A DNA stretch of 64,000 nt from an uncultured Elusimicrobia bacterium. GTDB taxonomy: Bacteria; Elusimicrobiota; Elusimicrobia; 2-01-FULL-59-12. The translations under genes and the position numbers were made by a program. The notes below the pieces were generated by a model. It made no database searches and was not told where the DNA came from. It saw only the letters and a program-made list of their open reading frames with translations. Numbering within the stretch: the stretch's first letter is position 1; each line of letters opens with the position of its first letter. Of the stretch, positions 688 to 2,156 are shown piece by piece. Location of the stretch: the NCBI GenBank assembly GCA_963702895.1, contig OY969767.1, forward strand, positions 1,248,001 to 1,312,000, given 5' to 3'.

Positions 688-726
688 CAAGCTCCGTCGT
701 CTCTCCTTGAAATCCGGAAGGCGCGG

Positions 727-1220
727 AGCAGGAAATCATTAGGGGGGTCCTTTCTATCCCATGGAGCAGGGGCCTGCTCGCTCCGGCGAAATTTCCCCCT
801 CCATAGCCCAGATCAAGCCGGGCTACAGAGGGTCAGCGTTATGGCGAGGGCAGCCTGCGGAACTCGGGACTTCCCTAGATTTGTGCAAAGGATGCCCTCA
901 CACAGTCCTCGGCTGGTCACGCCCTCGCCAAAACGCTTGAAATTTCGAGTCGCTCGCTAGACCCCTGCTCCATGGAAAGAAGTTCTACTCATACAATTAC
1001 GCGAACACTTCTTGCCGCGGGGGAGTGAGGCAGCGAACGACTCGCGGACGGCGGCGGGGCGACGAGAGCGTTTTGCCGAGGATGGATGAGCCTCGCCCTC
1101 TAGTCTACAGGAAGGAGGCGAGTTCCGCAGGCAGCTCGAGACGCACCGCCGGGTTGTCCGGGAGCGCCGGAGTGAGATGCCTCACTCCCCCGCGGAAAGG
1201 ACCCACAAAAGTTTCCTGCT
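727..1220. mobile_element. Non-coding nested inverted-repeat element (MITE-like or structured RNA)
   Basis: Outer IRs AGCAGGAAA (727-735/1212-1220) and GGGTCCTTTC (745-754/1195-1204). Inner IRs CCATGGAGCAGGGG (759-772/962-975), CCGCGGGGGAGTGAGGCA (1015-1032/1178-1195) and GCCTGCGGAACTCG (853-866/1119-1132). Confidence 0.6.
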
Positions 1221-1309
1221 ACTCTTAAGACGCCACCGCCAGGCGCATCGCTCTATGCTTCTGCAAGCAGGAAGCCAGAATTAGAAGCCTCGTGCCACCC
1301 CGCACGACG

Positions 1310-1447
1310 TGAATAGGTGATGAATAGGTCATGAATAGGTCACCTTGGTGGGTTTATCGTCTGAAAGAAGGCACACCTATTCATCGTGAATAGGTCGGAC
1401 ATACATGAATAGGTGATGAATAGGTCGTGAATAGGTCATGAATAGGT
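1310..1447. repeat. Phased array of TGAATAGGT 9-mers (8 direct + 1 inverted; 11-bp period)
   Basis: Direct copies start at 1310, 1321, 1332, 1387, 1406, 1417, 1428 and 1439. The inverted copy at 1375-1383 forms a palindrome with the 1387 copy. Confidence 0.97.
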
Positions 1448-1457
1448 GAGGTGCGGG

Positions 1458-2156
1458 TTATGCCAGGTCCTTGGGTGAAGGGAGTTTAGCGATCTCATAG
1501 CGGCGCTCGCGCGTATTGGAGGAAGGGCTTTGGCGCGCGTTGCCAGTTTTCACAAGATCCTCCAGGCTCCGCCAGGCGGTCGGTTGGGAGATCCCTAAAC
1601 GGGCGGCAACCTCTTCACTCGTCAGCGGCCCCTGCTCATTGAGCAGCCGGATCAGGCGCACGCGTCGGTCACTGGCGGCCTGGTCGAGCGGCGGCGAGGC
1701 TGCTCCAGGAGTTTTTCGCGAGGCTTGGCGTAGGCTCGCGCTCACCCCCGTCGCGGCAAAGATGCCCAGCACGCCGAGCGTGATGGTCTTCAATTCCTGC
1801 GGAAGCGACCATCGTGTCGAAAGGTTCGCACACGCGGCGAGCGCCAAGTAGAGCGCAAACCAGAGTCCGATGAAAAGTTCGCCACGCCGCAGGCGCATGA
1901 TCGATTCGTCGGCCCCAAGCCACTTGGCGCCTTCCCGTTGTGCCGCGTAGCCGCCAAGAAGCGCTAAATACACATCCCCCCAGGGAACGCGCGAGGCATA
2001 AGTCCCGCCTTTAAAAAACTCATACAGTTGAAAGGCAAAGATGACGGCTGTATATCCCAACGTAATAGGGTAGAGCGCTCGGTCCATGGCATGCAAGAAG
2101 GTTCGGGACTGCACTTGCGGGGTGGTTCCGGACGGTTGTGACGTATCAGTGTTCAT
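1458..2156 (-). CDS. Hypothetical membrane protein (about 4 TM) with C-terminal winged helix-turn-helix domain
   Basis: Four hydrophobic segments, a Pro/Ala linker, then LIRLLNEQGPLTSEEVAARLGISQPTAWRSLEDLVKTG (wHTH pattern). AAGGAAGGGG SD-like sequence upstream. Confidence 0.8.
   Translation of the reverse strand: MNTDTSQPSGTTPQVQSRTFLHAMDRALYPITLGYTAVIFAFQLYEFFKGGTYASRVPWGDVYLALLGGYAAQREGAKWLGADESIMRLRRGELFIGLWFALYLALAACANLSTRWSLPQELKTITLGVLGIFAATGVSASLRQASRKTPGAASPPLDQAASDRRVRLIRLLNEQGPLTSEEVAARLGISQPTAWRSLEDLVKTGNARQSPSSNTRERRYEIAKLPSPKDLA

Follow-up and report, generated by a model that had tools for sequence, protein, structure and literature searches.

The gene and DNA array described here are best explained as a mobile, self-targeting membrane regulator cassette, a reading that we hold with about even confidence: the encoded protein would bind the array beside its own gene, and the bound protein would tether the locus to the membrane and control transcription locally. 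Throughout the family, each copy is likely to fasten the chromosome segment around it to the membrane and to govern transcription at that place. The window, a stretch of 64,000 nucleotides, comes from a genome (G000) that consists of one 2.72-Mb contig, and the closest named relatives of the 232-aa protein come from Elusimicrobia. The initial annotation did not recognize the gene-plus-array unit as a described system. Our literature searches, which covered mostly papers readable without subscription and no supplements, likewise found neither the family nor its architecture, and this Elusimicrobiota family of membrane-embedded DNA-binding proteins is apparently undescribed.

The protein and the adjoining array

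The 232-aa protein consists of an N-terminal four-helix membrane domain, a linker, and a C-terminal winged HTH (wHTH) (Table 1). About four transmembrane (TM) helices and a C-terminal wHTH had been read from the sequence, and both predictions stand. Four helices are modeled, three of which have a Kyte-Doolittle peak above 1.0 (1.31, 2.02, and 1.69), while helix 2 is polar. Residues 163 to 210 match Pfam HTH_IclR (E value, 1.4e-7), and the AF2 pLDDT exceeds 90 across the wHTH; Trans_reg_C was absent among the 25 Pfam families shown. Positive-inside Lys+Arg counts suggest that both termini are cytoplasmic and the outer loops short; these loops have 13 to 15 residues, and there is no periplasmic sensor. 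The membrane domain keeps Y-x6-Y-x4-E-x3-W and G-E/x-F-x3-W motifs, and stand-alone proteins of 130 to 150 aa made of the same domain also exist. Among the proteins scanned, it matched none of the families in Pfam, PHROGs, NCBIfam, or PADLOC; 10 proteins run against the 2023 PADLOC library gave weak wHTH matches and a weak HEC-05 match (E value, 0.007). Fold searches returned generic wHTH matches only for the full model and nothing at an E value of 0.001 or below for the membrane domain. A wide fold search with the membrane domain yielded generic four-helix bundles, the best with a Z of 10.1 (rmsd, 2.7; 117 aligned), which is under the meaningful level for helical bundles. No pore-like match to this domain was found in the fold searches, and an ESM Atlas search gave unnamed clusters only.

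Table 1. Coordinates of the features in and around the gene-array unit (positions within the window)
Feature	Positions	Strand	Basis	Remarks
TM-wHTH gene, 232-aa product	1458..2156	(-)	ORF listing, Pfam, AF2	
Membrane domain, residues 17-145	1722..2108	(-)	pLDDT 91.6	Pair of helical hairpins with short outer loops
Winged HTH, about residues 163-222	1491..1670	(-)	Pfam, AF2	Recognition helix SQPTAWR
Gene-proximal block, four direct TGAATAGGT	1406..1447	(+)	Read directly	11-bp period
Inverted pair ACCTATTCA-tcg-TGAATAGGT	1375..1395	(.)	Read directly	Possible dimer site
Inter-block spacer	1341..1374	(.)		TTTATCGTC core
Gene-distal block, three direct TGAATAGGT	1310..1340	(+)	Read directly	11-bp period
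MITE-like repeat, ~500 bp	724..1223	(.)		Terminal inverted repeats AGCAGGAAA...TTTCCTGC; apart from gene-array unit

Exact TGAATAGGT sites start at 1310, 1321, and 1332 (plus strand), at 1375 (minus strand), and at 1387, 1406, 1417, 1428, and 1439 (plus strand). Shuffled sequences held a mean of 0.19 sites, and none of 100 shuffles reached nine. The layout described at the outset is thus confirmed throughout: nine sites, a palindrome, an 11-bp period, and 2-bp spacers within the blocks that vary among GA, CA, and CG, in an array whose last site is separated by 10 bp from the gene's stop codon. CRISPR arrays place unique spacers of about 25 to 45 nt between their repeats, whereas the spacers within these blocks measure 2 bp, and the earlier view that this is not a CRISPR holds. 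An assembly artifact, raised as a concern at the same time, is unlikely because homologous arrays occur in independent genomes (L011 and L015); the reads of the one DNA sequencing run checked do not cover the array.

By Pfam, the neighbors in the window are a DegT aminotransferase and gmd. The MITE-like repeat sits between the array and gmd, which lies about 650 bp from the array; it has eight near-full genome copies (73 to 84% identity) as well as fragments, with a folding z of -8.65. Rfam gave no match over positions 600 to 2400, and a promoter/terminator scan predicted none. In two genomes of the same genus, degT is followed directly by a glycosyltransferase-like gene, and the cassette is absent.

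The source genome contains 21 exact TGAATAGGT copies, 18 of them inside two arrays. The second array (G000:C1:431829-431965; L009:7830-7966) has the same layout and no family gene nearby. All 81 site bases are identical between the two arrays, versus 29 of the 57 spacer bases, which indicates selection on the sites, as the initial annotation had preferred over pure slippage. The second array is a candidate second target: a lipoprotein-like gene (322 aa, without a Pfam match) lies ~145 to 170 bp downstream of it.

The family has three more full paralogues and a wHTH fragment in G000, and every one of them is followed by an array that starts at the stop codon. These 3' arrays are built from other motifs with a period of about 21 bp; those at G000:C1:1600408-1600575 and 1108031-1108240 are mosaics in which motifs of two types share a single 21-bp register. 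Relative to the GC-skew maximum of this one genome, the four intact genes lie at -280, -141, +4, and +210 kb; the skew minimum is near position 660, and the TGAATAGGT arrays are at 431.8 kb and 1249 kb. Two tandem genes, which we take to be DUF1016-like, end at arrays built from the 1394-kb paralogue's motif (G000:C1:2036960-2037152 and 2038511-2038703). The gene at 703774-704901, presumably another DUF1016-like gene, has a 21-bp GGCGGATCT array at its 3' side. Arrays of 21-bp period without a family gene occur at G000:C1:86722-87313, 506200-506540, 704918-705236, 1854229-1854313, and 2697898-2698047, and intergenic repeats, both tandem and inverted, are abundant in this genome.

Arrays and neighbors across the family

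Database searches gave 27 close proteins and 112 representatives. The 136 collected proteins include 87 with both domains and 36 with the membrane domain only, some of the latter being fragments. In an order-level survey, 6 of 12 genomes carried the gene, in 2, 2, 3, 4, 7, and 14 copies; the six genomes in which it was not found are 73 to 90% complete. No relatives were found in viral contigs, plasmids, or phages with the queries used.

Whether TM-wHTH genes consistently adjoin phased arrays was a question left by the initial annotation, and the family answers it positively. We scored the best 9-mer, allowing one mismatch, in 200 nt per flank, leaving out duplicate loci (L014, L019, L030, and L046) and contig-truncated genes and counting separately those genes in which the profile failed to match the membrane domain or the wHTH. 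At least four repeats were present downstream of 25 of the 44 TM-wHTH genes, upstream of 14, and on either flank of 38, compared with 23 of 250 background G000 genes and 6 of 34 nonmembrane wHTH genes. With at least five repeats, the counts were 29/44 (on both flanks, 0), 13/250, and 1/34, respectively. Six TM-wHTH genes fell under the threshold, and five of them show arrays by inspection; L062 has none, and L042 is doubtful. The arrays hold 4 to 10 phased sites with motifs that are mostly distinct among paralogues. Among 157 same-strand spacings, 73 measure 10 to 12 bp and 37 measure 20 to 23 bp, so that 110 correspond to one or two helical turns, and 9 fall at 14 to 19 bp. Two ideas were rejected: the TM-only genes L027, L028, and L036 cannot serve as array-free controls since they have 5' repeat clusters of their own, and the clade L042-L049, once thought to lack arrays, has them located 5'.

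The side on which the array lies follows the phylogeny. The 15 5'-type genes, with an array over their own promoter and start codon, form one clade (support, 100), while the other clades, including the window gene, have the array 3' of the gene. A -10-like hexamer lies 5 to 11 nt before the ATG in 9 of the 15 5'-type and 7 of 27 3'-type genes. In L043, L109, L113, and L119, sites at -41/-43 (and at -30 in three) cover the -35 region and an inverted site overlies the start codon, which, judged from the sequence, is an autorepressor layout. Upstream of the 27 3'-type genes, own sites show no excess (9 versus 10.9 expected), and a looping partner site was not found; the own-motif count on the array side (157 versus 6.5) is circular and was set aside. 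The earlier argument against simple autoregulation therefore fits the window copy and its 3'-type relatives, and it fails for the family, in which 15 genes carry promoter arrays.

Arrays without a gene also occur in G064, G402, G258, and G135. Genes lie downstream of several of them, several start at a stop codon, and one (L155) lies between convergent genes. In a gene-less array of G064 (L154:1998-2097), a promoter and initial codons of the L043-gene type are retained, as would be expected if the promoter had been copied or a cassette had decayed. At L037 (G071:C13:5826-6532), the membrane and wHTH parts are two separate ORFs, and the 3' array is intact.

The surroundings of the cassette vary. 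By crude ORF calls, no conserved neighbor and no ParA/ParM/TubZ-type gene was present around 59 loci, and no partition NTPase was found among 26 Pfam-scanned neighboring proteins. The same crude calls indicate that the gene beyond a 3' array differs from locus to locus and is unrelated; it is convergent in the clear cases L011, L012, L013, L032, and L034. At L128, the array lies directly ahead of a membrane-domain-only paralogue. Dedicated control of gmd, one of the two roles first proposed for the window array, is unlikely because the next genes are unrelated and often convergent and the MITE-like repeat intervenes.

Variable neighbors, together with the missing cassette after degT in the two same-genus genomes, could also mean that the sites are accessories of recombination or insertion, with an Xis-like wHTH bound around a core to move the cassette. 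The two site blocks do flank a partly conserved TATCGWC core, two DUF1016-like genes end at a paralogue-type array, and a stop codon marks the start of several gene-less arrays. However, no more than 9 of 54 family loci have TATCGWC on the array side (other side, 0 of 53), a recombinase is never a regular neighbor, and a membrane domain would be unexpected in such a system. We regard this explanation as improbable. A full palindromic core, TTTATCGWCGATAAA, showed no convincing enrichment.

Recognition helices and array motifs

The protein very probably binds its array directly, as first proposed. This judgment draws mainly on the family-wide association, the helical phasing, and the conservation of sites, to which co-variation between recognition helix and motif adds moderate support; a recurrent unit with these properties makes binding likely.

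We examined co-variation on a tree of 42 loci whose alignment excluded the recognition helix, with motif registers set by hand. Similar helices and motifs recur together across clades: L038 (SQPTLWR, TGAATAAG) with L011, L015, and L018; L017 (SRTTTWR, TGAAACAC) with L020 and L031; and L051 (SRATAGR, TGAGCAGG) with L050 and the 1394-kb paralogue. In sister groups, an RST versus an RRT helix separates TGAG from TGGC. W at helix position 5 accompanies TGAA in 9 of 9 cases, and of the 9 cases with R at helix position 2, 8 have C at motif position 4, versus 0 of 33 otherwise. Under permutation within clades, the value of the QPTAWR helix window over 723 cross-clade pairs was reached by 7 of 2,000 permutations. 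This window ranked second of 162, the first being the junction of helices 1 and 2, and the top 12 of 163 single columns included none from the helix. Independent pairs (n = 2 to 4) never pointed in the wrong direction and are too few for significance, and the pairwise partial correlation was 0.16 for the helix versus 0.14 for the remainder of the HTH. Because the array adjoins the gene that encodes the HTH, co-inheritance accounts for agreement within clades.

Outside the family, Fic and HATPase proteins with a PRRT or TRRT helix are followed by TGGCAC or TGTCGC arrays, in agreement with the rule. A formal out-of-family test (15 of 39 loci) was not significant (1,311 of 20,000 permutations), and in a stricter version the one array among 39 was paired to a motif with a dissimilar helix. 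The co-variation sought by the initial annotation is thus present inside the family and not established outside it.

Could the array be an unbound, slippage-type repeat that travels with the gene? Intergenic tandem and inverted repeats are indeed plentiful in G000, and 13 of 250 ordinary genes have at least five repeats downstream. Slippage would nevertheless have to produce helical phasing despite many different motifs, keep sites while spacers diverge, converge on the same helix and motif pairs across clades, and place the arrays of the 5' clade over promoters. It is very unlikely on these grounds.

Tethering, transcription, and related systems

The regulator cassette that we favor would work as follows. 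Four helices would anchor the protein in the inner membrane, with the wHTH in the cytoplasm according to the predicted topology, and several copies would oligomerize on adjacent phased sites along one DNA face, as phasing and co-variation suggest. Given a protein in the membrane that likely binds its array, a membrane tether would follow physically; both the window locus and, at C1:431.8 kb, the array without a gene would be held there. Copies in one cell would mostly avoid cross-talk because each paralogue has its own motif. Local transcription control is the most likely purpose of the cassette. The 5'-type relatives would repress their own promoter, and in 3'-type copies such as the window gene the complex may form a roadblock at the gene end or an operator for the next promoter, which at L128 would be that of the membrane-domain-only paralogue. 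Three observations fit this account poorly: 3'-type genes have no upstream sites, which leaves their route of self-regulation unexplained; the L155 array lies between convergent genes; and L027, L028, and L036 have their 5' repeats despite lacking a wHTH.

ToxR, CadC, and TcpP have an N-terminal OmpR-type wHTH, a single membrane helix, and a periplasmic sensor. The family differs in its C-terminal wHTH, its four helices with 13- to 15-residue outer loops and no sensor, its arrays of 4 to 10 phased sites mostly 3' of the gene, and its up to 14 paralogues. It resembles these regulators in joining membrane segments and a DNA-binding domain in one polypeptide, as the accessible portions of the sources describe for them (PMC10269533, PMC11856585). 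Binding by transmembrane regulators brings DNA to the membrane, and their target is typically close to the regulator gene, according to the portion available of PMC7888679. In the 5' clade, the sites cover the gene's own promoter, which makes it the candidate target, and the 3'-type genes have no consistent target. A gene-adjacent site would favor capture during transertion, which would not be required because CadC reaches its site by diffusion and capture (PMC7888679, available portion).

In parC/ParR and tubC/TubR, two site blocks with one-turn spacing lie beside the binder gene and double as its operator. The family likewise has phased direct repeats adjoining the binder gene, which in the 5' clade would be its own operator. 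Unlike type II and III partition systems, it is chromosomal, has no adjacent motor NTPase, uses an integral membrane protein as the adaptor, and gave no plasmid or phage match to the queries used. The family would work like a transmembrane transcription regulator with a centromere-style operator.

A centromere-like role, the other proposal made from the sequence, is unlikely because 0 to 14 dispersed paralogues occur per genome, no partition motor is present, and the loci are not origin-proximal. A dedicated tether, with the array as a centromere-like anchor that positions the chromosome (e.g., the terminus region) at the membrane, is an unlikely explanation too. The phased two-block arrays, the gene-less arrays under selection that recur in G064, G402, and G258, and the placement of the four G000 paralogues between -280 and +210 kb from the GC-skew maximum are consistent with it. 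Yet acquired genes often gather near the terminus, and the clustering is seen in one complete genome; 6 of the 12 surveyed genomes yielded no copy, the scanned neighbors include no conserved or ParA/ParM/TubZ-type gene, and a shared anchor would not need private motifs. RicO offers a precedent. RicO and RocS both combine a DNA-binding domain with membrane attachment. RicO recognizes a specific motif at origin-proximal sites and attaches by an amphipathic helix, as described in the accessible part of the report (10.64898/2026.03.06.710092). Compared with RicO as portrayed there, the family protein is polytopic, its sites in G000 are mainly the gene-adjacent array and one gene-less array rather than origin-proximal ones, and its copies number 0 to 14.

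Similar C-terminal wHTHs occur in Fic and AlbA/DUF4062-HATPase_c_4 proteins, some of which are followed by 10- to 11-bp arrays (helix PRRT with TGGCAC at L085 and L099). These proteins differ from the family in having soluble enzyme domains and shorter, rarer arrays. Short arrays follow the wHTH genes of Fic, DUF4062-HATPase_c_4, and AlbA_2-HATPase_c_4 proteins at L085, L089, L099, L091, L029, L073, L084, and L097; that of L029 lies just ahead of an integrase-like gene. In-frame 12-bp repeats precede some of these wHTHs: at L056, L077, L082, L083, L090, and L094, larger wHTH proteins have such repeats (TTQE, TPQK, and SSQK) immediately ahead of the domain, where they may be a counterpart, within coding sequence, of the self-binding array.

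Another explanation is a DNA-held membrane effector for addiction or defense, whose array would keep the protein harmless until loss or degradation of the DNA frees the membrane domain to oligomerize and depolarize the cell. A patchy, multicopy distribution with private motifs, frequent TA, nucleotidyltransferase, Fic, and GIY-YIG neighbors, a membrane domain with conserved polar residues and stand-alone forms, and the shorter 3' arrays after Fic and AlbA/HATPase wHTHs would all suit this idea. We nonetheless find it unlikely, considering that the membrane domain had no PADLOC match in 10 proteins, that a pore-like structure was not found, and that the neighbors may merely mark insertion hot spots. 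A more speculative and rather unlikely proposal treats paralogues as up to 14 orthogonal tethers, each inserting into the membrane during transcription and capturing its private 3' array in cis through a helix-to-motif code; the array would perhaps act as an antidote, restraining a membrane effector as long as the chromosome stays uncut and the cassette is present.

How membrane-bound DNA-binding proteins locate and hold their targets is debated between transertion and diffusion and capture, as outlined in the accessible text of PMC7888679. The family provides dozens of natural protein/site pairs, with arrays 5' or 3' and mostly distinct motifs, which makes cis capture, tethering, and a recognition code directly testable. 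Its uncharacterized membrane domain, which also occurs alone, adds to the interest, and the family could yield orthogonal DNA-membrane tethers as tools.
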